From Deltaproteobacteria bacterium (GTDB lineage Bacteria; Myxococcota; Kuafuiibacteriia; Kuafuiibacteriales; Kuafuiibacteriaceae), in contig JAVJQW010000019.1 in NCBI GenBank assembly GCA_040218735.1, positions 352,001 to 416,000 on the forward strand: DNA of 64,000 nucleotides, written 5' to 3'. Below, in pieces: positions 20,612 to 35,497 of this stretch. The translations under genes were made by a program, and so were the position numbers. Numbering within the stretch: the stretch's first letter is position 1; every line of letters begins with the position of its first letter. Under the pieces are notes generated by a model that worked only from the letters and a program-made list of their open reading frames with translations, ran no database searches and was not told where the DNA came from.

Positions 20612-20760
20612 GCCGAAGCCCGCCGCGAATGCGGCGGATCTGAGGACTGTGCCAAGGTCACTCGCGAAGCGAGGGACCGTTATGGCCTGGTTGGCTGAGG
20701 CCCCCTGCTGATCGCCCGGGCGTTGTGGTGTCGGCCCCGCAGGGTTGGTAGCTTCCCCAC

Positions 20761-21795
20761 GTGGCGTGGCGGGGAGGGTGGTTCGTCGTCCTGACGATCG
20801 CGGCGTGTAAGACGACGCCAGCGCCTCCACCGCCTCCTCCACCGCCGCCGCCTCCGCCGCCCGCGGTGAACCACTGCGCGCCGACCGTCGCGTCGTGCCT
20901 CGACGCCGCGGAGCGGATGGCCGACGACGCGCTCGCCGAAGGTCTGACCCACGCGCGGATCTGTGCGGCGTGCCCGGGTGCGCCGCCGACGGCGTATCGG
21001 CTCCTCGCTTCGCTCGAGAGTGACAGCGGTGACGACGCCGCGGCGCTCGCGACGCTCCGCTCGGGCGCCGAGCGGTTCGAGCACAACGGCACCCTGTGGC
21101 TCGCGCTCGCGCGCGCGGAGATGGAGGCGAAGCACGCGCGCCGCGGCATCCGTGCGTACGCGAAGGCGCAGCAGCTCGCGCCGAACGACGACAACGTCGC
21201 GCGCGAGTACGAGTACGCGCTCACGCAGCACGGCACCGAGTCCGAGAAGATCGAAGCGAAGGTCGCGCCGCTGCTCCTCGAAGCCGTCGGGCGCTACGAG
21301 CTCGACGACGTGAAGGGCGCCGCCGCCACCCTCGCGGTCGCGCTGAAGACCGCGAAGGGGGCACCCAAGCTGGAGGCGAAGGTGCACCACCGGCTCGCGC
21401 TGCTCGCGATGTCGCAGGGCGATTCGAAGGGCGCGCACAAACACTTCGCGTCGGCGCTCGCGTTGGTCCCCGACGCGAGGCCCCCGCGCGCGGACCTGTT
21501 GCTCGGGTACGCGGAGCTGTTGGTGCTCGACGGGCGCATCGAGGACGCGATCAAGGCCGCGAAGGAGTCCGTGAAGATCGATCCCGCGCAGCCGCTCGCG
21601 CACACCAACCTCGCGGTGGCCTACGCGGAGCTCGGCAAGATCGACGAGGCGCTCACGTCGTTGAAGCGTGCGTCCGAGTCCGGGCTGTCTCGGCGCCTGT
21701 CGCGCGACGCGCTCCTGCAGATCGGCGGGCTGTCGAAGCTCGCCGAGGATCCGCGCTTCACGAAGTGGCTGGATCGGACGTGGCCGAAGCCGTGA
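20761..21795 (+). CDS. TPR-repeat lipoprotein
   Basis: LTIAAC lipobox, poly-Pro linker and TPR-like helices (AHTNLAVAYAELGKIDEALTSL). Confidence 0.75.
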   Translation: MAWRGGWFVVLTIAACKTTPAPPPPPPPPPPPPPAVNHCAPTVASCLDAAERMADDALAEGLTHARICAACPGAPPTAYRLLASLESDSGDDAAALATLRSGAERFEHNGTLWLALARAEMEAKHARRGIRAYAKAQQLAPNDDNVAREYEYALTQHGTESEKIEAKVAPLLLEAVGRYELDDVKGAAATLAVALKTAKGAPKLEAKVHHRLALLAMSQGDSKGAHKHFASALALVPDARPPRADLLLGYAELLVLDGRIEDAIKAAKESVKIDPAQPLAHTNLAVAYAELGKIDEALTSLKRASESGLSRRLSRDALLQIGGLSKLAEDPRFTKWLDRTWPKP

Positions 21796-22642
21796 GCACG
21801 AAACACGCCGGGTAGACGCTGCGCTCCGGCGTCAGGTACCGGCGCTGCAGCTCGCTCGGGTCCGCGAGGTCGTCGACGACGAAGCCCTGGCGCTCCAGGA
21901 ACGACGGCGCGTCCTCGGGGTGGATGCCGAACGTGATCGGCTCGCCGAGGAGGTGCAGCAGGCTCGCCGATGCGCGGCGGAGGGTGGAGAGCCAGTCCGT
22001 CGAGTCGAGCAGGAACCAGAAGTCCATCGCGACCTGCGAGCCCGGGCCGCCGAGCGCGCGGAGGGTGTCGAGCGTCGATTTCACGGCGTCTCGGGTGAGG
22101 TACATCGAGACCCCCTCCCAGACGAAGAACGTTCGGCGCCCGAGCGCGAAGCCGACGCCGGTGAGGACGTCCTCGATGCGCTCGCGCAGAAAGTCGATCT
22201 CCACCGCCGTCACCGCGACGCTCGGCAGCTCGTCGCGGTGCGCTTGGACGATCTCCTGCTTGCGACGGCTCGTCGCGAAGAAGTCGAGCTCGTACACCGG
22301 CCGTTCGCCGAGCTGATCGGCGAACCGATACGCGCGGGTGTCGTAGCCGGCGCCCAGGAGGACGACCTGCTCGGCGCCCGCGGCGAGCGCCTTCGTGAGG
22401 GCGTCGTCGATGAAGCGGTGGCGCGCGACGATGTACGTCGACAGCCCGGTCGGCGTCTTGTCCTCCGCGAGGCGTCCGAGGCGCCCCGTCGCCTCGAGCG
22501 TCGCGAGCGCCGTGCGGGTGAGCGGCCCGAGGAACCACTTCGCGAAGGGATCGTCGAGCGCGCGCTCGGGTTCGGGGCGCCGCCGCTCGGCGGCGCGATA
22601 CAGACACACCATCTCCGCCGTGCGGCTCGGCTCGTCCTTCAC
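21758..22642 (-). CDS. SAM-dependent methyltransferase (LCM family)
   Basis: SRTA...DDPFA, ARHRFID, QVVLLGAGYDTRAYR and WEGVSMYL motifs. Confidence 0.9.
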   Translation of the reverse strand: MKDEPSRTAEMVCLYRAAERRRPEPERALDDPFAKWFLGPLTRTALATLEATGRLGRLAEDKTPTGLSTYIVARHRFIDDALTKALAAGAEQVVLLGAGYDTRAYRFADQLGERPVYELDFFATSRRKQEIVQAHRDELPSVAVTAVEIDFLRERIEDVLTGVGFALGRRTFFVWEGVSMYLTRDAVKSTLDTLRALGGPGSQVAMDFWFLLDSTDWLSTLRRASASLLHLLGEPITFGIHPEDAPSFLERQGFVVDDLADPSELQRRYLTPERSVYPACFVLTASATSDPATS

Positions 22643-22714
22643 GTTGGCAGATATCCTAGCTCAGCTTCGGGTGCGTCTCGACACCTGGCCCGGCGCGGGG
22701 GCCAGGGGTCACGA

Positions 22715-23890
22715 CTAGGCGTGAAGCTCTTCCAGGTCCCTGAAGAGCGACTCCAGCTTCGGCGACGCTCTGCGCTCCTGCCCCACGAATTTCTCAACTT
22801 CAAGCTCTTCGAGCGCGGCGTCGATGATCTCCAGCAGACGCGGCTCACGCGGGTGCGCGGCGAACGCGAGGCTCCGTGTCGGCTTCTGAGGAGCGACGCT
22901 CTTGACCAGATCCACGCGAACCAGTTCGGAGTACTCGGCCTTCAGGTGAAGCGCCTCGATGTCGTCGGTGATGACGACGACCGGTGTCGTACGTGACGCC
23001 GCGCGGAGCTCTCGGATCGGATCGTCGCACTCCTGGACCTCGACCTCCGCGGGCACGGCCGAGGCGACCAACGATCGCACGATAGAACCGCGAGCGATCA
23101 TGACCTGCGTGCCTTCGAGGTCCGTCAGAGTCTTCGAGCGGTGGATCGCGGCGGCCGTCGCTTCCGGGAAGTGATTGCGGTTGCACACTGCGCTCGCCCC
23201 GACCCGCAGCGCTGGGCACTGGATGGGTTTGGAGAAGGACACATGAAACAAGCGACTCGGGTTGCGCAGGACCGTCGCCGCGACGTCAATCGTGCCGTCA
23301 TGAATGGCCGAGATGAAGTCCAATCCGTCCTTCTGCTCCTCGGATATGTCGACGAACTCGACCTCGACCTCCATGATGTCTCGCACCCGCTCCGTCAGCT
23401 TTTGTAGAAGCGCCGTGAAGGCGGGCGCTGAGCTGAAGGGTTGTGCAACCACGAGACGATGCTTCCCTTGGTAGACACGGTCGAGGACGACGTTCTTCGG
23501 GCGTCCGCGGATCGCAGAGAATCCAGCGGATTCGAGGAACTCATTGAGCAGCTCGTCGAGGTCGTCTAGGCCGTAGAGGTAGAGTGCGTCTCGATCCCAC
23601 TCGTCACCACGGCCACGTCGGTTGGGGTTGCAGCGAAACTCGACGCGTTCGCCCTCCCTCCGTTCGATCCGGTCGACGTGTCGGGCGATCGCATGGACGA
23701 CGCGGTTGATCTCACGCCTTGATATCGGCACCCGTGGTTTGTTCGGAGACTTCCAGGCTTGTCTCAGCCAGGCTCCTCCCGCACCAAGTTCGACTAGAAA
23801 TGCCTCCCTATCCAGATCCACAGAGTGCACGTAGGTATCGATGAGATCGATGAAACGGGGGGATGCGAGATGTCGGTTGGACTTGGTCAT
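22715..23890 (-). CDS. Hypothetical protein with C-terminal type-2 periplasmic-binding-fold (SBP_bac_3-like) domain and no signal peptide
   Basis: ATG at 23890 overlaps the HNH gene stop (ATGA). VEVEFVDI...AIHDGTIDVAATVLRNPSRLFHVSFSKP...TLTDLEG...LAFAAHPREPRLLEIIDAALEEL resembles family-3 solute-binding proteins. The N-terminal ~140 aa is unrecognised. Confidence 0.65.
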   Translation of the reverse strand: MTKSNRHLASPRFIDLIDTYVHSVDLDREAFLVELGAGGAWLRQAWKSPNKPRVPISRREINRVVHAIARHVDRIERREGERVEFRCNPNRRGRGDEWDRDALYLYGLDDLDELLNEFLESAGFSAIRGRPKNVVLDRVYQGKHRLVVAQPFSSAPAFTALLQKLTERVRDIMEVEVEFVDISEEQKDGLDFISAIHDGTIDVAATVLRNPSRLFHVSFSKPIQCPALRVGASAVCNRNHFPEATAAAIHRSKTLTDLEGTQVMIARGSIVRSLVASAVPAEVEVQECDDPIRELRAASRTTPVVVITDDIEALHLKAEYSELVRVDLVKSVAPQKPTRSLAFAAHPREPRLLEIIDAALEELEVEKFVGQERRASPKLESLFRDLEELHA

Positions 23891-24504
23891 CGACGTCCTC
23901 CTGAAGAGTTGGAGTCCAGCGTACCCGGTGCGCGCGCGCCCTTCGATAGGTTGTCTGCCCGGGACCGTACTGACGCGTTCCCGTAGCTGTTGGCGCCTCC
24001 TTTCGAACGGGGGACGATGTGATCGACGTGGGCCTCGTTCTTGGGTGGTGTCACGCCCTTGGTATGCTGTTGTGCTTTTCGAAGGGGCGCTCCCGTGGCG
24101 TCGTCCCGCATGCGATGGCCGTTGAGCTGGAGGTTCCGCTGTCGGATGCGTTGCTTTTGACCGTGCGCGAACTCTCGGCCACGCCCCACCTTCGAGCGGC
24201 TCACGATGTCGCCGTAGGGCTTCTTCGTGGCGGGTAGCCCGTAGGTCGTCACGTGAGGACGAGCGTCGGCCTTCGCTTGCGCCGACGTCGTCGAAACCGA
24301 ACCCTTCGACCCGCGACGCACGACGAGGCGCTGCGTGCCGTGTGCCCGAAGCACCGTCCGTGTCGTCTTGGTGGCCTTCGCACCGCGCGTTACGCGCGCG
24401 CCTTTCAGCAGCCGGAATGGGTTGAAGGCGTACGCCTCCGAACTCAAGCCGACGCCGGCCCCGACGAGAAATACACACAATAGGTTGCGCAAGAACATCA
24501 ACAT
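23887..24504 (-). CDS. Secreted HNH nuclease (polymorphic-toxin-type tip with Sec signal peptide)
   Basis: Signal MFLRNLLCVFLVGAGVGLSSEAYA; C-terminal GREFAHGQKQRIRQRN...GVTPPKNEAHVDHIVPRSKGGANSYGNASVRSRADNLSK (DH...N...N). Confidence 0.8.
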   Translation of the reverse strand: MLMFLRNLLCVFLVGAGVGLSSEAYAFNPFRLLKGARVTRGAKATKTTRTVLRAHGTQRLVVRRGSKGSVSTTSAQAKADARPHVTTYGLPATKKPYGDIVSRSKVGRGREFAHGQKQRIRQRNLQLNGHRMRDDATGAPLRKAQQHTKGVTPPKNEAHVDHIVPRSKGGANSYGNASVRSRADNLSKGARAPGTLDSNSSGGRR

Positions 24505-24519
24505 TCCTTTCTCCGTGGG

Positions 24520-25677
24520 TTACCGACGGCGAAGGACGGGCCGCACTTTCGAGAGCGGGCGGACCCGCTTGAGTGCGCGGGCTGCGATGGGTAGGCCTCG
24601 TCCGGCCCGGACACCCTTCAGGAACTTGGGTCCGGGAACGAACCAGCTCAGGAGGTCGCCCTGCATTGCCTCGCGCTTGTGTAAGAGCTGGTGCTCGAGC
24701 AGCTCGAAGTCGAGTCCGCGCGCACATTCGGCGGCGCGGTCGAGTGCGACGCGGGTATCGTAGTCGCGCTCGTCCAGTGATGAGGAGAGCGCTTCGTCGA
24801 CGCCCATCAGCAGGCCGCAACCCAGTTCGTTCAGGAATCCGAACGTCACGCCGTCGAAGAACGACCAAGTCGTGGTTCGCTGCGCGGCTTCGTCCGTGAA
24901 GTTCTTGTGGTTGAACGGGAAGAAGGCCGGCACAAGCTCGCCGTCGAAGACCTCGCCGCTCCGGCGAACGGAGATCGGGAGCGGGGTCGTTCGCGAGAGG
25001 GGGATCTCGTCCAGTGCGGTCACCAGTGTTGAAGAACGCCCGATGGGTATGCCGTCGAACTCGACGATGTAGTCACCGACCTGGAGCCCGAGCTCCTCGC
25101 CGGGCATGCCTGGATGGATGCGTGTGATTTGCAACCCCTGGGCGACGTCTCGGAGGCCGATGCCAATCTGGAACGGCGCTTCGCGCCCCTCCGATTCGAG
25201 CAAAAGGGCTTCGTAGGCCATACGCCCACGGAGGATGCGAGCGACCTCCGGTGCTTCGCTCACCGTGGCTCTTGACGGGCCGAGGAGCGTGAGACGATTC
25301 GATTTCCCGCTGAGTTTCCCTCGGTGAAAGCCGCGTGTGGTTTTGCAGCCGTCGTAGTTGCGCTCGAAGGCCTCACTCGGGTCGACGCACATCTGATGCG
25401 GGCCGCTCCAGACCAACCCCCCGGAGGTCCCTGAGATCCACTTGGCCAGCTCGCTCCGAGATTCCGCGAAGTAGAAGAATGCCTCGCCCTGCACATCCTC
25501 GAAGCGGGTACATGCTCCTGGCTCCATTGCGTACCATCCCCGCGTCCGGAACCCCCGGTCGTCGCGGTATGCGGTGGCGACGTAGCTCTGAACGGGCGCG
25601 GCGTTGCACAACTCGACCTCTGTGCCTTCGGCGGGTGCCGCAACTAGTAAGAATAGATGGGAAAGGGCTTTGGCCAT
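24520..25677 (-). CDS. Exported DUF1036 + PDZ domain protein
   Basis: Signal-like N-terminus; VELCN...YVATAY...TRGWYAMEPGAC...FFYFAES (DUF1036-like); IGIGLRDVAQGLQITRIHPGMPGEELGLQVGDYIVEFDG (PDZ). GGAG RBS upstream. Confidence 0.7.
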   Translation of the reverse strand: MAKALSHLFLLVAAPAEGTEVELCNAAPVQSYVATAYRDDRGFRTRGWYAMEPGACTRFEDVQGEAFFYFAESRSELAKWISGTSGGLVWSGPHQMCVDPSEAFERNYDGCKTTRGFHRGKLSGKSNRLTLLGPSRATVSEAPEVARILRGRMAYEALLLESEGREAPFQIGIGLRDVAQGLQITRIHPGMPGEELGLQVGDYIVEFDGIPIGRSSTLVTALDEIPLSRTTPLPISVRRSGEVFDGELVPAFFPFNHKNFTDEAAQRTTTWSFFDGVTFGFLNELGCGLLMGVDEALSSSLDERDYDTRVALDRAAECARGLDFELLEHQLLHKREAMQGDLLSWFVPGPKFLKGVRAGRGLPIAARALKRVRPLSKVRPVLRRR

Positions 25678-25892
25678 GAAGGACTCCAGGTCGTAGCACT
25701 GAGTCGCCTGGATTGAGCTCCAGCGCGCTTGCTACGTTTCCTCCACTCTAGCGGGCCTCATACGGCCAGCCAGTGGCTCCGGATTCCTTGCGGTCGTTTC
25801 TCGTTTTTACTGGAAAGTCCGAACTCAGCCGGCTTTCCTACGGGCCCGGGTGGGATCGCTAACTCGACAATCGCGGCGCGAAGCGGCCAAGA

Positions 25893-29564
<3,672 letters not shown>

Positions 29565-29709
29565 GAGAGGCCCATCGTAGGGTTGGGTTCGCTGTGAACG
29601 CCAGTCCTCGGCCGCCGGGTGCGCGCGGCCAACCGATGGGGGAATGTGCGGGCATGTCGGATTCGCCAGCGGACGTAAGGAACCGACGCCCGCGGCAACC
29701 CACCCTCCG

Positions 29710-30510
29710 ATGCAGCTCATGCGCTCGGTCGCCCTGGCGATCGCCTCGTTGGCGTTCGCGGGGCCCTCGTACGCCCAGGACGAACCGAAGGAGGGGGATC
29801 CGCCCTTCGCGCGGGTCGCCGACGACGAAGAGACGATCTACGCCGTCCAGCGCAAGGCGTTCTCGGTGGAGGACAAGCTCGAGCTGACGCCGTTCGTCGC
29901 CGCGACGTTCGCGGACCGCTTCGTCCAGAGCTTCGCGATCGCCGGGAGCCTCGGCTACCACCTCCGCGAGACGTTCGCGGTCGAAGTGTTCGGCAGCTAC
30001 ATGTTCCCGACCGAGTCCGGCCTCACGCGAGAGATCCTCGACCGCGGGATGTTGCTCCCCGAGACCGCGAAGCTGACCCAGCTCCTGTGGGCGGCGGGCG
30101 CGGGCGTCAAGTTCAGCCCGCTGTACGGGAAGGTCCAAGTGATGGGCGCCGTGCTCGGCAACCTCGCCTTCTACGTCGGCGCGGGGTTCGCGATCGGCGA
30201 GTCACGGGTGCGGTGCACGTCGGGGCAGCGGCTCGACCCGGCGAAGTTCGGCGATCGCGTGTGCCCGATGCAGCCGAGCGTCGACGAGGAGGCGTACGAG
30301 CCGGCGACGCTCCGACCGCTCGGCGCGATCTCGGGCGGCGTGCGCTTCGACCTGTCGGAGTGGCTCGCGATCGAGTTCGAGGTGAAGGACTACATCTACG
30401 TGGCGCGTGTCTTTCGGCCGGAGGTCGACGCGCCGACGCAGCGCTACACGGACGCGGTGCGCAACGATCTGTTCGCGCAGCTCGGCGTGGGGATCTTGAT
30501 GGGCCCGTAA
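29710..30510 (+). CDS. Myxobacterial-type outer-membrane beta-barrel (GltA/B/H-like family)
   Basis: Signal peptide (SYA-QD); IYAVQRKAF...LELTP, FADRF, LGYHL.ETFAVE and FSPLYGK motifs; alternating beta strands. Confidence 0.75.
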   Translation: MQLMRSVALAIASLAFAGPSYAQDEPKEGDPPFARVADDEETIYAVQRKAFSVEDKLELTPFVAATFADRFVQSFAIAGSLGYHLRETFAVEVFGSYMFPTESGLTREILDRGMLLPETAKLTQLLWAAGAGVKFSPLYGKVQVMGAVLGNLAFYVGAGFAIGESRVRCTSGQRLDPAKFGDRVCPMQPSVDEEAYEPATLRPLGAISGGVRFDLSEWLAIEFEVKDYIYVARVFRPEVDAPTQRYTDAVRNDLFAQLGVGILMGP

Positions 30511-30514
30511 GCGG

Positions 30515-32647
30515 TTACAGCCCGTCGACGAGCGTGGGCTCGAGGAAGCGGGTCGGCACGGCGGTGACCTGCCCGAACCCGTTGGAGCCCCAGCATTCGA
30601 GGTGCCGATCGGTGCGAACGGCGCAGCTGTGGTCCGCACCGATCACGAAGTCGACGGTCGCACTCAAGTGCTCCACGCGGGTCGGACGCAGCTCGTCGCG
30701 GGCGTTACCGTTGGCGAGGTTGTGCGCCTCGTTCTGTCCCCAGCACGACCACGCGCCGCTCCCGAGTCTCGCGCACGGGGAGTGCTGTTTACCGCGGATC
30801 TCGACGGCGCCCGAGAAGTCGTAGACGCGCTCGGGGGCCATGCGGTGGATGCGGTTGTTCGAGCCGAGCGCGCCCTGTTCGTTGTTCCCCCAGCAGTACA
30901 CGTCGCCGTTTTGGAGTCGGGCGCACGAGATGCTGCCGCCTGCGATCACCTCCTCCGCGGGCCCCGGCAGTGGCACGGGAAGGTCGGGCGTCTCCCAGTG
31001 GTCTACGCCGAACAAGTAGGCACCGATACACACGACCGTGTCTTGGAGCGTCACGGCGCACACGTGATGATCGCCGAGGGCGAGCGCGCGGACCTGCCCG
31101 AGCTCGGGCACCGGCGTGACGCCCGCGAAGTAGCGACCCCAACACGTGACCCAGCCTTCACGGTCGATCACGCAGCTCCGATCCCAGTTCGCGCGTAGCG
31201 CGATCGCGTCGGGCGCGTCGACGATCTCCACGGGCGCCCGAATCTCCGCGGGACCTCCGGGCAGCACTTGTCCCCAATCGTTCCTCCCCCAGCAGTGCAC
31301 TCGGTTTTTGGGGTCGAGCGCGCAGGTGTGGTTGGCGCCGGCGGCGAAGTCGCGTGCCTCGTCCAGCTCCACGCGGACGGCGTGGCCGCCGACCAGCGGC
31401 GCCGCGGCCGACCCGAGCTGGCCGGAGGTGTTGTTTCCCCAGCACCACAACCCGCCGGGCTCGTCGAGCGCGCAGGAGTGGGTGCTACCGACGTCGACCG
31501 CTTCGACGCGCGGCAGATCGAGGGGACGTGGAGTCGCGACGAGCGGGGAGATGTCGACGCCGAGCTGGCCGGACGCGGTCGAGCCCCAGCAACGAAGCCG
31601 ACTGTCGTCGTCGAGGAGACACGCAAACGAATGACCGACCTCGATGCGCTTCGCTCCACTGAAACGAAGCGGCGTCGCGAGGTCCACGTGGTTCACGATC
31701 GCCCCCCAACAGACGACCTCGCCGTCCTCGAGCCGGGCGCAGGTCCACGACGCTCCGGCGCGAATCTGAACGGCACGGCCCCCGAGATCCGGAACGTTCG
31801 CCCCGGCCGACGGGCCCCAGCACAGGACGCTCCCGCTCTCTCGTGTCACGCAGGTGTGGTGGTAGCCGGCGGCGATCGAGGTCACGTCGGTGAGCCCCGT
31901 GTCGAACAGCTGCGTGCCGGGGAGCGGCGTCTGGGCGCCGAACATCCCGGCGGCGCCCTCGCCCCAGCAGTACACCCGCCCCTCGGCGACGGCGCAGGTG
32001 TGGTTGGAACCCATCGCGACCGCTTCGATCGGCCCCTCGATACGCGCGAAGTCGTCCGGGTGTCCCAGCTCCTGGCGGTCGTTGGTGCCGAAGCACCGAA
32101 GCTGCCCGTCTTCGAGCACGGCGCAGGTCGTCTCCTGTCCCGCGAACAGCCGGGTCACGCCGGTGAGGTCGCCGCTCGCGAGCTGGTCGTAGTCGTCGTT
32201 GCCCCAGCAGGTGAGCGTCCGGTCGCGGCGTACGACGCAGCAGTGACTCGAACCGCACGCGAGCTCGGTCGCGTCCTCGACGCCCGGGATAGAGTTCGGC
32301 GTGGCGACGATCGGGGTGGACGCGGGCGCGCCCGCCAGCCCCGCGACGTTCGCGCCCCAGCACTTCACGCGACCGCTCGGCTCGAGGACACACCCCGTGG
32401 TGTTGCCCAGCGCGACGTCGACGTACCGCGGGTGGCACATCCCGACGTAGCAGACGTCGCCGCGCTCGCAGTCGGCGTCGACGGCGCACTCCAACAAACA
32501 AGCGCCGGGGTCCCCGGGGGCCACGCAGATGTCGGTCTGACACACGAGCCCGTCGCCGCAGACACCGTCGCACGGCTCGCACAGGATCGGGTCGAGGCCG
32601 CGGCAGGCGAAGAGCGCGAAAGCGGCGAGCCCGACGAAGCGATTCAC
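30515..32647 (-). CDS. RCC1-repeat lipoprotein
   Basis: Lipobox ALFAC and a Cys-rich N-terminus, followed by many GxxHxCA...GxxxCWGxNxxGQLG repeats. Confidence 0.9.
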   Translation of the reverse strand: MNRFVGLAAFALFACRGLDPILCEPCDGVCGDGLVCQTDICVAPGDPGACLLECAVDADCERGDVCYVGMCHPRYVDVALGNTTGCVLEPSGRVKCWGANVAGLAGAPASTPIVATPNSIPGVEDATELACGSSHCCVVRRDRTLTCWGNDDYDQLASGDLTGVTRLFAGQETTCAVLEDGQLRCFGTNDRQELGHPDDFARIEGPIEAVAMGSNHTCAVAEGRVYCWGEGAAGMFGAQTPLPGTQLFDTGLTDVTSIAAGYHHTCVTRESGSVLCWGPSAGANVPDLGGRAVQIRAGASWTCARLEDGEVVCWGAIVNHVDLATPLRFSGAKRIEVGHSFACLLDDDSRLRCWGSTASGQLGVDISPLVATPRPLDLPRVEAVDVGSTHSCALDEPGGLWCWGNNTSGQLGSAAAPLVGGHAVRVELDEARDFAAGANHTCALDPKNRVHCWGRNDWGQVLPGGPAEIRAPVEIVDAPDAIALRANWDRSCVIDREGWVTCWGRYFAGVTPVPELGQVRALALGDHHVCAVTLQDTVVCIGAYLFGVDHWETPDLPVPLPGPAEEVIAGGSISCARLQNGDVYCWGNNEQGALGSNNRIHRMAPERVYDFSGAVEIRGKQHSPCARLGSGAWSCWGQNEAHNLANGNARDELRPTRVEHLSATVDFVIGADHSCAVRTDRHLECWGSNGFGQVTAVPTRFLEPTLVDGL

Positions 32648-34140
32648 GGCGCCGGCTCCGACGCGAAGATCTCGTTGGTGACGATCGCGCGGACCACGGC
32701 GACGATCAGCGCGGTCGCCCCGATCGACAGCGCCGTCACCGCACCGGCGCGCAGCGGGCCGACGCGCTGGCTCGCGTCGATCGCCTTCTGCGTGATGGGT
32801 CGCGCGTTGGCGTCGGCGGTGGCGTCCGCCGCCAGCATCGAGAGCACCGCGCCGCCCCCCGCGATCGCGAGGCCGGATCCGAGGAACGCCAGCGTCGTGT
32901 TGTCGTCGTACCAGGAGACGGCGGGTACGTAGGGCGCATCGAGGGTCGTCGACGTCGTCTGCAGGGCCATCGCTTCGACGCCTGCGACGAACTCCGGCGT
33001 CAGCGCTCTTTTGAATAGACTCCGCCGGAGCTCGTCCGCTATCGGCCCGCGCGACGCGAGTCGATCCGTCGCGTCCGCGAGCGGCGCGCCGAGGACGAGC
33101 CCATCGGGTCGCGGTTCGATCCGATGCACCGACCGCTCCGCGAACAGGTACAGCTCGCGTTCGCGTTCACTCACCAGCGCGAGCGCCATGCCCGCGGGTT
33201 TGTTGGCGTCGAGCACGCGGCGCCCGGCGGCGTCCGAGATGTAGAAGTGGCCGGCCAGCTCGGCGTCGATGTGCAGGCGTCGCTCCGGTTCGACACCGCG
33301 GAGATCGACGAGCGAAGCCCCGCGTGTGTGCGGTCGGCGAACGAAGGGCTGGATGCGGACCTTGGCGTTGTCCACCTCGTGGTTCGCGGCGACGAGGTAC
33401 CCCTGTACCTCCGCGTAGGTGACGATGCCGTCGCCGTCGACGTCGGCCGCGCCCTGCAGCGCGCCGAGCACCTGGTAGCTGAACACCCCGGCCTGGTAGC
33501 CGCTCCACTCTTGGACCTCCTCCTCGGCGCTCGTCGAGAGCAGGAAGCCGGTGTTCGGGTGACGCTCGAGGGTGTCCTCCGTGAGCGCCGCCGGGACGCG
33601 CTGTCCGCGTGAGCTCACGAGGAAGTACGAGTGACACGAGTCGATGATCACGTGTTTGCGGTAGGCGGGGACCTTGCGCAGGACGAGCTCCGCGAGGTCG
33701 GTGCGCGAGAACGGCTCGTCGACGAGGTGCAGGTACGCCTCGGCGGCGGTCACCGTGCCGTGGCCGGAGAAGTAGAAGTACAGCTCCGGGTTGCGGTCCT
33801 CGACGACCTCCATCGCGCGCGTGACGTCTTCGAGCGCCGCCTCCAACGCCTCGCGCGTGGGGACGCGCGCGCGGTTGGCGCGATCGCCGAAGCGCACGGC
33901 GGTCTCCTGGTCGACCCCCGCGAGCAGGTAGACCTGGGTGCCGAGCCCTTCGAGGAAACTCGCGACGCGCATCGCGTCGTCGTCGGCGTAGCGGAGTCGT
34001 TCGTAGTCGCTGCCGGGGAGGGGGTGGTTGTTGCCGATGACGATCGCGAAGGACGGCGGACGGACGCCCGGAGGTCCCCACTGCACGAGCGGCGTCGAGG
34101 TCACGGTCGCCGTGGCGGCGAGCAGCAGCGCTCCGATCAT
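32644..34140 (-). CDS. Caspase-like protease (peptidase C14), exported, with C-terminal TM segments
   Basis: FAIVIGNN, LRYADDDA, FYFSGHG (His), IIDSCHS (Cys) and GAADVDGDGIVT. The ATG at 34140 overlaps the upstream stop. Confidence 0.9.
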   Translation of the reverse strand: MIGALLLAATATVTSTPLVQWGPPGVRPPSFAIVIGNNHPLPGSDYERLRYADDDAMRVASFLEGLGTQVYLLAGVDQETAVRFGDRANRARVPTREALEAALEDVTRAMEVVEDRNPELYFYFSGHGTVTAAEAYLHLVDEPFSRTDLAELVLRKVPAYRKHVIIDSCHSYFLVSSRGQRVPAALTEDTLERHPNTGFLLSTSAEEEVQEWSGYQAGVFSYQVLGALQGAADVDGDGIVTYAEVQGYLVAANHEVDNAKVRIQPFVRRPHTRGASLVDLRGVEPERRLHIDAELAGHFYISDAAGRRVLDANKPAGMALALVSERERELYLFAERSVHRIEPRPDGLVLGAPLADATDRLASRGPIADELRRSLFKRALTPEFVAGVEAMALQTTSTTLDAPYVPAVSWYDDNTTLAFLGSGLAIAGGGAVLSMLAADATADANARPITQKAIDASQRVGPLRAGAVTALSIGATALIVAVVRAIVTNEIFASEPAP

Positions 34141-34901
34141 GGCGCCTCCACCCGGACGTCGAACACTTGCCGGTGTTCGAGGCGGTTCGGATCCTTCGCT
34201 TTCAGCGCCGCCGCGACCTCGGCGGGCGAGGCGTCGAACGCCGCGATGATCCGTAGCGCGCCCGGTTGGTAGTCGTCGTCGACCTTGATGTCGAAGGGGA
34301 GGCGGACGCTCTTGGCGTCGGCGCCGCCGCGGATCACCTCCGCGGCGCCGTCGACCGACTCCGGGTAGTACCAGTGCACGCGTCGGCCGTCCCAGCCCGC
34401 GATCGTGAGGGTCCGGTGCGCGCCCTCGGTGTTGCCGTACTTGAAGCCGATCTGTTCCCCGGGCCGAATCGTGTCGCCGGTGCGCAGGTCGCGTTTGCCG
34501 TCGGGGCCGATCGCCAGGAGCGCGACGTCCGCGGACCGAACCTCGGAGGCCCCCTTCGACCGCAGCTCGTCGCGCGGCGCGAAGACGAGCACGGCGGCGG
34601 TCGCGGCGGCGATCAGCGCGACGGTCGCTCCGCGGCGGGCCCAGTGTGCGGGCCGGCGTCGTCGTTTCGGCGCGGCGCCGTGGGCTTCGAGCAGCTCGCC
34701 GACGATCGCTGCGCACTCGGAGCAGCGCGCGATGTGGGCGCGCTCTTCGTCGGTGAGCGGTGCGCCGCCCTCCGCGATCAGCGCGAAGCGTTCGTCGGTG
34801 ATGTGGCCGGCTTCGACGGAGTCCCCGAGCAACGCGTCGGCGTTGTGGGCCACGAAGGCCTCGAGCTCTTCCGCGGGGTCCTTCACTCGACGGATCATCA
34901 T
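34137..34901 (-). CDS. Zinc-finger (HxxxCxxC) anti-sigma factor with extracytoplasmic DUF4384/ActD-like domain
   Basis: HIARCSEC, a TM helix (VALIAAATAAVLVF), RSKG, and LRTGDTIRPGEQIGF...DGRRVHWYYP. Confidence 0.75.
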   Translation of the reverse strand: MMIRRVKDPAEELEAFVAHNADALLGDSVEAGHITDERFALIAEGGAPLTDEERAHIARCSECAAIVGELLEAHGAAPKRRRRPAHWARRGATVALIAAATAAVLVFAPRDELRSKGASEVRSADVALLAIGPDGKRDLRTGDTIRPGEQIGFKYGNTEGAHRTLTIAGWDGRRVHWYYPESVDGAAEVIRGGADAKSVRLPFDIKVDDDYQPGALRIIAAFDASPAEVAAALKAKDPNRLEHRQVFDVRVEAP

Positions 34902-35497
34902 AGCGCATCACCTCCAAGCTTCGCGGCGAGGCGGGCGAAGAGCCGCTTCTTCTTCATGCGGACGGCCGGCGCGCTGAGCGAGAGCACTTCGCCGACGACG
35001 GTCGTCGAGGCCTCCTGCTCGTACATCAGCTTGAGCATCACGCGGTCGTCGTCCGGCAGTCCGTCGAGCAGCGCGCGGACGGCCGTGACGCGCGCGGTGG
35101 TCAGGGTCGCTTCCTCGGGGTTCGGCGAGTCCGTCGGGAGCTCCTTCGCGGCGGTTTCGTCGATGGGTGCGTGAACACGACGTTCGATGCGCGCCGTCTG
35201 TCGGAAGAAGAACCGAATCGCGACGCTGTGCATCCAGGTCGTGAGGGCCGCGCGCCCCGAGTAAGTGGTGAGGACGCGGCAGTCGTCCTGGAGCAGGAAC
35301 AGGTAGAACGACTGCAACAGGTCGTCGCGGTCCGGCCTCGACGCGGGGCGTTTCGTGATCGCGCGGCCCAGGCAGCTCATCACGATCCCCGCGGTGTCCT
35401 GTTTCAGGCGCTCGAAGGCCCCTTGCTCACCGCGGATGACGGCACGGACGCGTGCCAGGTCATCTTCACGCTCGGGCACGTCGGGTCGAGGCGTCAC
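34898..35497 (-). CDS. ECF RNA polymerase sigma factor
   Basis: Region 2 (DDLLQSFYLFLLQDD...YSGRAALTTWMHSVAIR) and region 4 (LPDDDRVMLKL...EVLSLSAPAVRMKKKRL). Start uncertain (GTG 35497 or 35527). Confidence 0.85.
   Translation of the reverse strand: MTPRPDVPEREDDLARVRAVIRGEQGAFERLKQDTAGIVMSCLGRAITKRPASRPDRDDLLQSFYLFLLQDDCRVLTTYSGRAALTTWMHSVAIRFFFRQTARIERRVHAPIDETAAKELPTDSPNPEEATLTTARVTAVRALLDGLPDDDRVMLKLMYEQEASTTVVGEVLSLSAPAVRMKKKRLFARLAAKLGGDAL

Follow-up and report, generated by a model that had tools for sequence, protein, structure and literature searches.

A three-gene cassette that places a predicted helix-turn-helix/binding-protein-fold protein behind a small HNH nuclease of a polymorphic-toxin clade

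Background

What does a small HNH nuclease of toxin type do when the gene directly behind it, in the position where an immunity gene is usually found, encodes a protein with the look of a sensor and regulator? The question is raised by a low-GC cassette of three genes in the genome of a Deltaproteobacteria bacterium of the family Kuafuiibacteriaceae (assembly GCA_040218735.1, contig JAVJQW010000019.1). The stretch analysed, called the window below, is 64,000 nt long (positions 352,001 to 416,000 of the contig), and all coordinates are those of the window. The cassette proteins are labelled P0003, P0002 and P0001 in the order of transcription. Their genes are co-oriented on the minus strand with all frames intact:

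24520..25677, minus strand: P0003 gene, 385 amino acids (aa), DUF1036 and PDZ domains
23887..24504, minus strand: P0002 gene, 205 aa, predicted exported HNH nuclease of polymorphic-toxin type
22715..23890, minus strand: P0001 gene, 391 aa, predicted cytoplasmic protein with an XRE-type helix-turn-helix (HTH) and an SBP_bac_3 domain of type II periplasmic-binding-protein fold

As a toxin P0002 is of an ordinary kind and falls in a well-catalogued HNH polymorphic-toxin clade. What is notable is a member of this clade with a sensor-regulator-like protein in the immunity slot instead of Imm33.

P0002 and the HNH toxin clade

Three parts were distinguished in P0002, with the confidence of its AlphaFold2 (AF2) model given as the predicted local distance difference test (pLDDT) score:

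24427..24504, minus strand: predicted Sec signal peptide, residues 1-26, with a hydrophobic core and ending in AYA before F
24220..24426, minus strand: basic, probably disordered linker, residues 27-95, with 16 K/R against 1 D/E and pLDDT about 46-57
23920..24219, minus strand: HNH toxin domain, residues 96-195, delimited by alignments, pLDDT 80-96

The HNH domain passed the Pfam threshold only marginally (HNH, PF01844; 21.8 bits against a cut-off of 21.4), and comparison with NCBIfam and PADLOC gave a single generic match, to a Cas9 HNH core at E 0.048 (PADLOC). The HNH motif quoted in the original prediction was present in P0002, and its placement among domains of the kind found at the tips of Rhs and other large toxins was borne out. 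A word-index search with P0002 returned six other proteins, two of which carry an RHS Pfam domain, while a third is named by its source as RHS repeat-associated. A pattern scan covering one genome per species yielded 92 stretches encoding HNH relatives, and 80 were kept. Fifty-three of these 80 loci (L055-L106 and L115) were examined further; the other 27 were excluded, as their matches cover the HNH core only. In 10 of the 53 loci the HNH domain ended a 5'-open frame of 1,534-1,796 aa, the full protein lengths lying beyond the locus. The core GVTPPxNEAHVDHIxPxSKGG...N...N..K was common to the large or Rhs-annotated tips and to the small secreted forms in the clade alignment. On this evidence P0002 is assigned to a known, catalogued polymorphic-toxin HNH clade as a further member.

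The small size of P0002 together with its own signal peptide had been regarded as unusual. This was not upheld, since short forms with a hydrophobic N-terminus occur across the clade. Several members are 150-260 aa long with such N-termini, and signal-bearing forms of 151-254 aa were found in Archangium (151 and 156 aa), Corallococcus (153 aa) and Ilyomonas (254 aa), next to a verrucomicrobial example of 527 aa. At the N-terminus of P0002 the Kyte-Doolittle mean over 19 residues was 2.0 at residues 1-20, and the maximum over 11 residues was 2.75. By the lipobox rule P0002 has no lipobox, its sole N-terminal cysteine being C10 in the context N-L-L-C. Rhs, PAAR or similar delivery domains were not found in the protein.

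P0002 keeps D161-H162, N176, N185 and K188. In an alignment of 27 clade members the catalytic D-H and the structural and metal-binding N residues of the beta-beta-alpha-metal fold show little or no variation, DH161-162, N156/N176/N185 and K188 being the invariant set of the clade. Of 25 positions with conservation of at least 80% among 26 relatives, P0002 retains 21. It is without the two CxxC zinc pairs, like the whole Cys-less subclade (18 loci) to which it belongs; these pairs, present in many HNH proteins, are not required for the fold. A tail of 10 aa follows the HNH domain of P0002, and most clade members end before it.

The AF2 model was confident at residues ~100-195 (pLDDT 80-96) and disordered over residues 27-95. 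Foldseek with this model gave nothing at E<=0.001; the best row had an E of 0.19, and the top rows were HNH DNases. The top VIA-align rows were likewise all HNH nucleases, at middling Z (rmsd, root-mean-square deviation):

McrA: Z 6.1, rmsd 14.9, 80 aligned
Gme HNH: Z 6.0, rmsd 7.0, 78 aligned
IscB: Z 5.7, rmsd 3.3, 59 aligned

The genome holds only one other HNH-core match (G000:C52:201095-201220, L002). The open frame around it, 672 aa long, has no relation to the cassette and recurs in G001, a genome of the same genus.

Immunity partners of the clade

An immunity-type gene was found directly downstream of the HNH gene in 41 of the 53 loci, 15 being of Imm33 type and 26 DUF4265. Three of the remaining loci had a third, unnamed class of downstream gene, and in nine none was found. 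Downstream genes were grouped with representatives, on which the family names were checked with Pfam. The gaps between HNH gene and immunity gene ran from roughly -52 to +46 nt in these related loci. No cross-pairing of subclade and immunity family occurred among the 53 loci:

Cys-less subclade (LRSDxxG ... NAQVLSRxxN), 18 loci: Imm33-type in 15, DUF4265 in 0, other in 1, none found in 2
CxxC-motif subclade: Imm33-type in 0, DUF4265 in 26, other in 2, none found in 7

This strict pairing of subclade and partner supports DUF4265 as a putative immunity family for this HNH clade.

The closest relatives of P0002 (L055-L057) come from two Phycisphaerales metagenome-assembled genomes (MAGs), with 52-53% identity over the domain, and from a Myxococcales MAG, with 34% over 185 columns. 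All three are followed by Imm33. In the Myxococcales locus (L057 1650-2761) a 465-aa HNH toxin precedes the Imm33 gene, and a second open reading frame (ORF) at 2396-2761 carries the same GGWQF-type motif as judged by eye; the locus looks like a small polyimmunity array.

Neither Imm33 nor DUF4265 was matched in the window or in the whole genome. The Imm33 part of this blank is weak, because the Imm33 search was silent in all 14 control genomes. Viral contigs scanned with the HNH alignment gave only generic HNH-core matches (residues ~120-205), which do not belong to the toxin clade.

P0001 in the immunity position

The P0001 gene begins within the HNH gene. The two overlap in ATGA (23887-23890), and an AGGAGG Shine-Dalgarno site (23902-23897, minus strand), 6 nt before the P0001 ATG, lies within the 3' end of the HNH gene. 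The overlap and the position of this site suggest translational coupling of P0002 and P0001. The protein was divided as follows:

23651..23890, minus strand: HTH-like N-terminal domain, residues 1-80, with helices at 11-23, 28-35, 40-47 and 58-79
22781..23509, minus strand: SBP_bac_3-like ligand-binding domain, residues ~128-370

P0001 had been described as a protein of solute-binding protein (SBP) fold without an export signal. Both features were retained after Foldseek, ESM Atlas and hydropathy analysis; the description as an SBP alone had to be given up, as it had missed a probable XRE-type HTH at the N-terminus. On its own, P0001 scored 19.9 bits against Pfam SBP_bac_3, below the cut-off of 26.4, and a word-index search returned only P0001 itself. 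An exhaustive phmmer search of 1.84 billion representatives (E<=0.001) returned 17 proteins, two of which are pieces of P0001 itself. The 15 relatives are 359-621 aa long, 25-38% identical to P0001 and homologous over the full length. Their alignment with P0001 (A1) showed a conserved N-terminal block ahead of the binding-protein domain, with the consensus LGWxQxxLA...SxAQxSGW...RxxGRxHxNRIAxAIA. With P0001 counted, Pfam matched SBP_bac_3 in 16 of 16 sequences of A1, HTH_3 in 8 and HTH_31 in 5. P0001 aligns across the HTH_3/HTH_31 region of the family, and helices are modelled there at pLDDT 81-91. Two sources label members of the family as 'transcriptional regulator with XRE-family HTH domain'.

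Structural comparison agreed with this arrangement. The AF2 model of P0001 (pLDDT 72.6) shows N-terminal helices (pLDDT 81-91 over residues 11-80) followed by a two-lobed domain. The nearest ESM Atlas cluster was 'HTH/SBP_bac_3' (52 members, score 0.94, 177 shared features), and the Atlas structure rows had template modelling (TM) scores of 0.62-0.71 by target. The top Foldseek matches of the binding domain were ArgBP, GlnBP and other amino-acid binding proteins (E 1.7e-11, TM by target ~0.6), with full-length OxyR at rank 33 of the list. Searched by sequence against the PDB, P0001 had no match at E<=10. Two residues conserved across the family, R213 and D309, lie at what we take to be the positions where amino-acid SBPs hold the carboxylate and amino groups of the ligand.

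An ordinary periplasmic SBP with a missed signal was considered and ruled out. The N-terminus of P0001 is not hydrophobic (11-residue maximum of 1.39 against 2.75 in P0002), its first ~130 residues form a polar helical domain, and no genes for a permease or ATPase, the partners expected in an ATP-binding cassette system, were present among the nine neighbouring ORFs scanned. From the HTH region, the non-hydrophobic N-terminus, the family alignment and the modelled fold, P0001 is predicted to be a cytoplasmic protein that joins an HTH to a binding-protein fold, in the architecture of a one-component regulator. With an XRE-type HTH common to the whole family, this architecture points to a regulator that senses a ligand more than to an immunity protein of known type. 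No known immunity family of Pfam, NCBIfam or PADLOC matched P0001, and the PADLOC defence models matched neither P0001 nor P0003. Prediction of a complex between P0001 and the HNH domain (residues 96-205) gave an ipSAE of 0.00 in both runs, which were made without control runs and are not evidence either way.

The extreme rarity of the HTH + SBP_bac_3 family is itself worth noting, with 15 distant relatives among 1.84 billion representatives. No full-length relative was found in 400 genomes of the phylum of the window or in 400 genomes of the phylum of genome G401, where the partial matches were to the SBP or to the HTH only, and there was none in four genomes with close HNH relatives. P0001 had no match among plasmid records. 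A pattern scan with a family alignment (A2) found no member in genome contigs or viral contigs and a single HTH-SBP locus in metagenome contigs (L024), which is cut at the 5' end of the gene. A full-text literature search found no paper describing the XRE-HTH + SBP_bac_3 architecture.

P0003, the first gene of the cassette

P0003 combines a DUF1036 domain (PF06282; 52.1 bits, 1.2e-13, cut-off 23) at residues 20-119, with four cysteines, and a PDZ domain at residues ~170-250 (PDZ_6, 34.9 bits, 1.3e-08; PDZ_2, 30.9 bits, 3.4e-07; cut-off 27 each). Its C-terminal ~130 aa match no known family, and the tail is very basic. ESM Atlas structure rows matched P0003 weakly to DUF1036 and PDZ clusters. 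A 5.8-billion word index returned only P0003 itself, and NCBIfam and PADLOC gave nothing beyond a generic PDZ match. Of 300 other genomes of the phylum, 17 contain DUF1036; the open frames mostly span 141-188 aa, reaching 350 aa among the weaker matches. None of the DUF1036 loci fetched from the phylum encoded a DUF1036-PDZ fusion.

Organization, composition and acquisition of the cassette

The tight linkage noticed at the outset was borne out by the sequence. A gap of 15 nt separates the P0003 and P0002 genes, the P0002 and P0001 genes share the ATGA described above, and a Shine-Dalgarno-like site precedes the start of each gene, GGAGA standing before the ATG of P0002. Two spacers belong to the insert:

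25678..25892, minus strand: upstream spacer, 215 bp, GC 0.605, within the insert; presumed promoter region
22643..22714, minus strand: downstream spacer of 72 bp, separating P0001 from the conserved LCM-type methyltransferase gene and marking where the insert ends downstream

An Rfam scan of 21000-27000 gave no match at E<=0.1. A promoter and terminator scan yielded no site resembling a promoter; its one terminator-like site is on the wrong strand, and a single such site is fewer than chance would give.

The reported drop in GC was confirmed. The spot count of 34/60 at 23701-23760 was right, against a mean of 42.7/60 in the methyltransferase gene. The cassette has a GC of 0.6315, the genome mean for windows of the same length being 0.688 (standard deviation 0.021), and only 1.6% of 22,830 such windows have a GC as low. 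GC at third codon positions (GC3) is 0.74-0.77 in all three cassette genes, compared with 0.90-0.94 in six neighbours. A Pfam scan of nine flanking ORFs found no mobility gene, again as first stated, and no direct repeats of note flank the insert.

P0001, P0002 and P0003 had no orthologue in 40 relatives, where the matches were PDZ-only or HNH-core pieces, and the cassette is a singleton, known from one genome only. The insert measures ~3.25 kb (22643-25892) and lies between two conserved flanking genes, one for a 1,275-aa protein with ASH/HYDIN Ig-like domains and a Gly-rich region and the other for the LCM-type methyltransferase. The site compared as follows:

G000, the genome of the window: three-gene cassette between the flanking genes
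G006, same family, other genus: site empty, with the stop of the large gene abutting the methyltransferase start
G011, same family, related genus: a different insert of 3.6 kb with two genes on the opposite strand
G001, same genus: contig begins 192 bp before the methyltransferase, and the copy of the large gene is cut by the contig end

The low GC and GC3, the lack of orthologues in 40 relatives and the directly abutting flanking genes in G006 are the grounds on which the cassette looks horizontally acquired, as had been proposed. With the cassette in G000, nothing in G006 and another insert in G011, the site is variable, and the junction of the large-protein and methyltransferase genes is a recurrent insertion spot. 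The two genes of the G011 insert (L035 9264-12666) are for a DHH-motif protein of 456 aa and an MsrB-MsrA-like fusion of 355 aa, both named by reading the sequences. An 18-nt motif occurs twice in the 192 bp of G001 (L038 1-192), which run to the contig break; these bases matched neither the 3' end of the P0001 gene nor any other place in G000.

An assembly chimera was ruled out. Among public sequencing runs one DNA run (X1) contained this stretch, and no RNA run was listed. A separately assembled 5,690-nt contig of X1 covers 20659-26285 with zero differences and hence bridges both cassette junctions; X1 may be the source sample, in which case its contig is not independent of it.

Proposed function and alternative explanations

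We tentatively favor, at a little short of even confidence, an acquired operon consisting of an exported HNH DNase effector, a regulator responsive to a small molecule (P0001) and an exported accessory protein (P0003). P0002 would be a Sec-exported DNase, most likely acting outside the cytoplasm as an antibacterial or DNA-degrading effector. P0001 would be a one-component transcription regulator of the operon that senses a small molecule, probably amino-acid-like, with or without a further role in neutralising toxin retained in the cytoplasm. P0003 would serve as an exported envelope accessory whose PDZ domain could dock the extra C-terminal tail of P0002. The data show how the genes are laid out, which domains they encode, their foreign composition, their absence from the relatives searched, the clade of the HNH domain and the usual immunity partners of that clade; export, nuclease activity, regulation by P0001 and any interactions among the three proteins are what we infer.

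Several observations weigh against this reading. The signal peptides of P0002 and P0003 were judged by hydropathy only, and the N-terminus of P0003 is short, signal-like by this measure and ambiguous. The HTH of P0001 itself is degenerate, with no Pfam HTH match at E<=1, and the 215-bp upstream spacer holds no consensus promoter and no operator-like inverted repeat of at least 8 nt. P0002 departs from the clade at four conserved positions, T113A, G130H (G in 26 of 26 others), Q178S and L180R; these changes and the marginal Pfam score leave the protein possibly attenuated. The co-occurrence search proposed with the original prediction was run and went against it. A P0001- or P0003-like gene stood beside the toxin in none of the 80 HNH loci (tblastn and profile searches, about 5 kb on each side where present), and the only profile matches were two ordinary SBP genes in one weak locus. 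These comparisons show no co-occurrence among homologues of the three genes and give no support to a conserved module. The one HTH-SBP locus from metagenome contigs, L024, has no toxin gene downstream, where a convergent phenylalanine-hydroxylase/aminotransferase-like operon lies instead. Finally, an immunity gene is retained beside the other signal-bearing toxins of the clade, so that a toxin with no immunity at all would be unusual, and for this reason an immunity role of P0001 has to be weighed.

According to this first alternative, P0001 would be the cognate immunity protein of a new class that binds and blocks the HNH domain in the cytoplasm; it would have replaced Imm33, its HTH would provide antitoxin-like autoregulation, and the cassette would form a complete module of toxin and immunity. 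P0001 sits in the exact immunity slot, with the ATGA overlap and the AGGAGG inside the toxin gene, and this slot is filled by an immunity gene in 41 of 53 related loci. No Imm33 or DUF4265 gene was found elsewhere in the genome, subject to the silent Imm33 control, and the changes Q178S and L180R, beside the catalytic finger, could reflect a changed partner. Nevertheless, P0001 had no match to a known immunity family, and with 391 aa it is three to four times as large as the immunity proteins of the clade; its family is regulator-like and found beside HNH genes in 0 of 80 loci. We regard this explanation as unlikely.

Equally unlikely in our judgement is that P0002 would be a secreted nutritional or predatory DNase acting on extracellular or prey DNA, with P0001 doing no more than switching on the operon in response to a nutrient signal. 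Such an enzyme would need no immunity, since it never enters sibling cells. A signal peptide without any Rhs, lipobox or PAAR delivery feature, the sensor-regulator architecture of P0001 and the absence of a recognized immunity family from the locus all fit this explanation, while the clade is otherwise tied to immunity genes, its small signal-bearing forms included.

That the HNH protein is an attenuated or dead remnant of an orphan toxin, and that the three genes merely arrived together on one transferred fragment and have no joint function, appears more doubtful still. It would account for a singleton cassette with no conserved co-occurrence, for the four substitutions with the marginal Pfam score and for the lack of a canonical immunity gene. 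The three frames are nevertheless intact, tightly coupled and equipped with Shine-Dalgarno sites, their GC3 is similar, the catalytic D161-H162, N176, N185 and K188 are kept, and the HNH domain is modelled with confidence.

We give little credence to the most elaborate proposal, in which P0001 would be a ligand-gated immunity protein and regulator at once, its binding-protein-fold clamp holding the HNH toxin and/or repressing the operon until a small molecule binds, so that toxin release would be coupled to a chemical cue, and P0003 would dock the toxin tail in the envelope. If P0001 did protect against the toxin or gate it, this would add a new mode of control over an interbacterial nuclease.

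Neighbouring genes

The product of the large flanking gene (25893-29720, minus strand), 1,275 aa long and read as secreted, has a lipoprotein-like N-terminus and Ig-like domains of ASH/HYDIN type, and its C-terminal third is rich in Gly. Two other genera have conserved it at 55-57% identity. In its C-terminal third the coding GC reaches 0.80, with many degenerate repeats phased at 9 nt. Further along (30515-34917, minus strand) lie adjacent genes for an RCC1-repeat protein (710 aa) and a caspase-domain (Peptidase_C14) protein (757 aa), which may form a conflict or signalling pair. On the other side of the cassette (20761-21795, plus strand) a tetratricopeptide repeat (TPR) protein has 14 consecutive prolines right after a signal-like start, and the 3' end of its gene overlaps that of the convergent methyltransferase gene by ~38 nt.

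Comparison with known systems

The nearest described systems are the Tox-HNH and Tox-DHNNK toxins with Imm33 (DUF2185). In the tables of Zhang et al. 2012 (PMC3482391), Sec/T2SS (type II secretion system) signal peptides are among the export routes of Tox-HNH and Tox-DHNNK, and Imm33 is given as a partner of these toxins. P0002 shares with them the HNH/EndoVII core and, in its closest relatives, Imm33, and the Sec export predicted for it is among the listed routes; judged by the motif in the table only, its pattern is consistent with the 'DH, N, N, N, K' signature of Tox-DHNNK. It differs from the tabulated systems in that the gene after it encodes no Imm33 or other known immunity protein and instead a 391-aa HTH-SBP protein, and in its departures at four conserved positions.

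Myxobacterial pairs of HNH and DUF4265 genes (L071 and L090 of Archangium, L075 of Corallococcus) belong to the same HNH clade. Their toxins are of 151-156 aa with a hydrophobic N-terminus, and the downstream gene is tightly linked (gap -52 to +12 nt), as in the cassette. In contrast to P0002, they fall in the CxxC...CxxC zinc subclade, have DUF4265 as the partner and lack an upstream DUF1036-PDZ gene.

The sitBAI cassettes of Myxococcus, as described by Vassallo et al. 2017 (PMC5562445), resemble the present one in gene order, the gene of an accessory protein being followed by that of a nuclease toxin, both exported (by prediction in the present cassette), and by an overlapping or adjacent downstream gene, and in being acquired, strain-specific three-gene operons. 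The components differ by description. SitA is a lipobox lipoprotein delivered by outer-membrane exchange (PMC5562445), whereas P0002 has no lipobox; SitB is a predicted beta-barrel, whereas P0003 is a DUF1036-PDZ protein; and the SitI proteins are small immunity proteins such as SUKH, to which P0001 has no likeness.

With respect to P0001, the closest parallel is in LysR-type regulators such as OxyR, which also place an N-terminal DNA-binding domain before a type II binding-protein fold. P0001 is not a member of the LysR family; its DNA-binding region is of XRE/Cro type instead of a winged helix, and its sensor is closest to the amino-acid-binding SBP_bac_3 domains.

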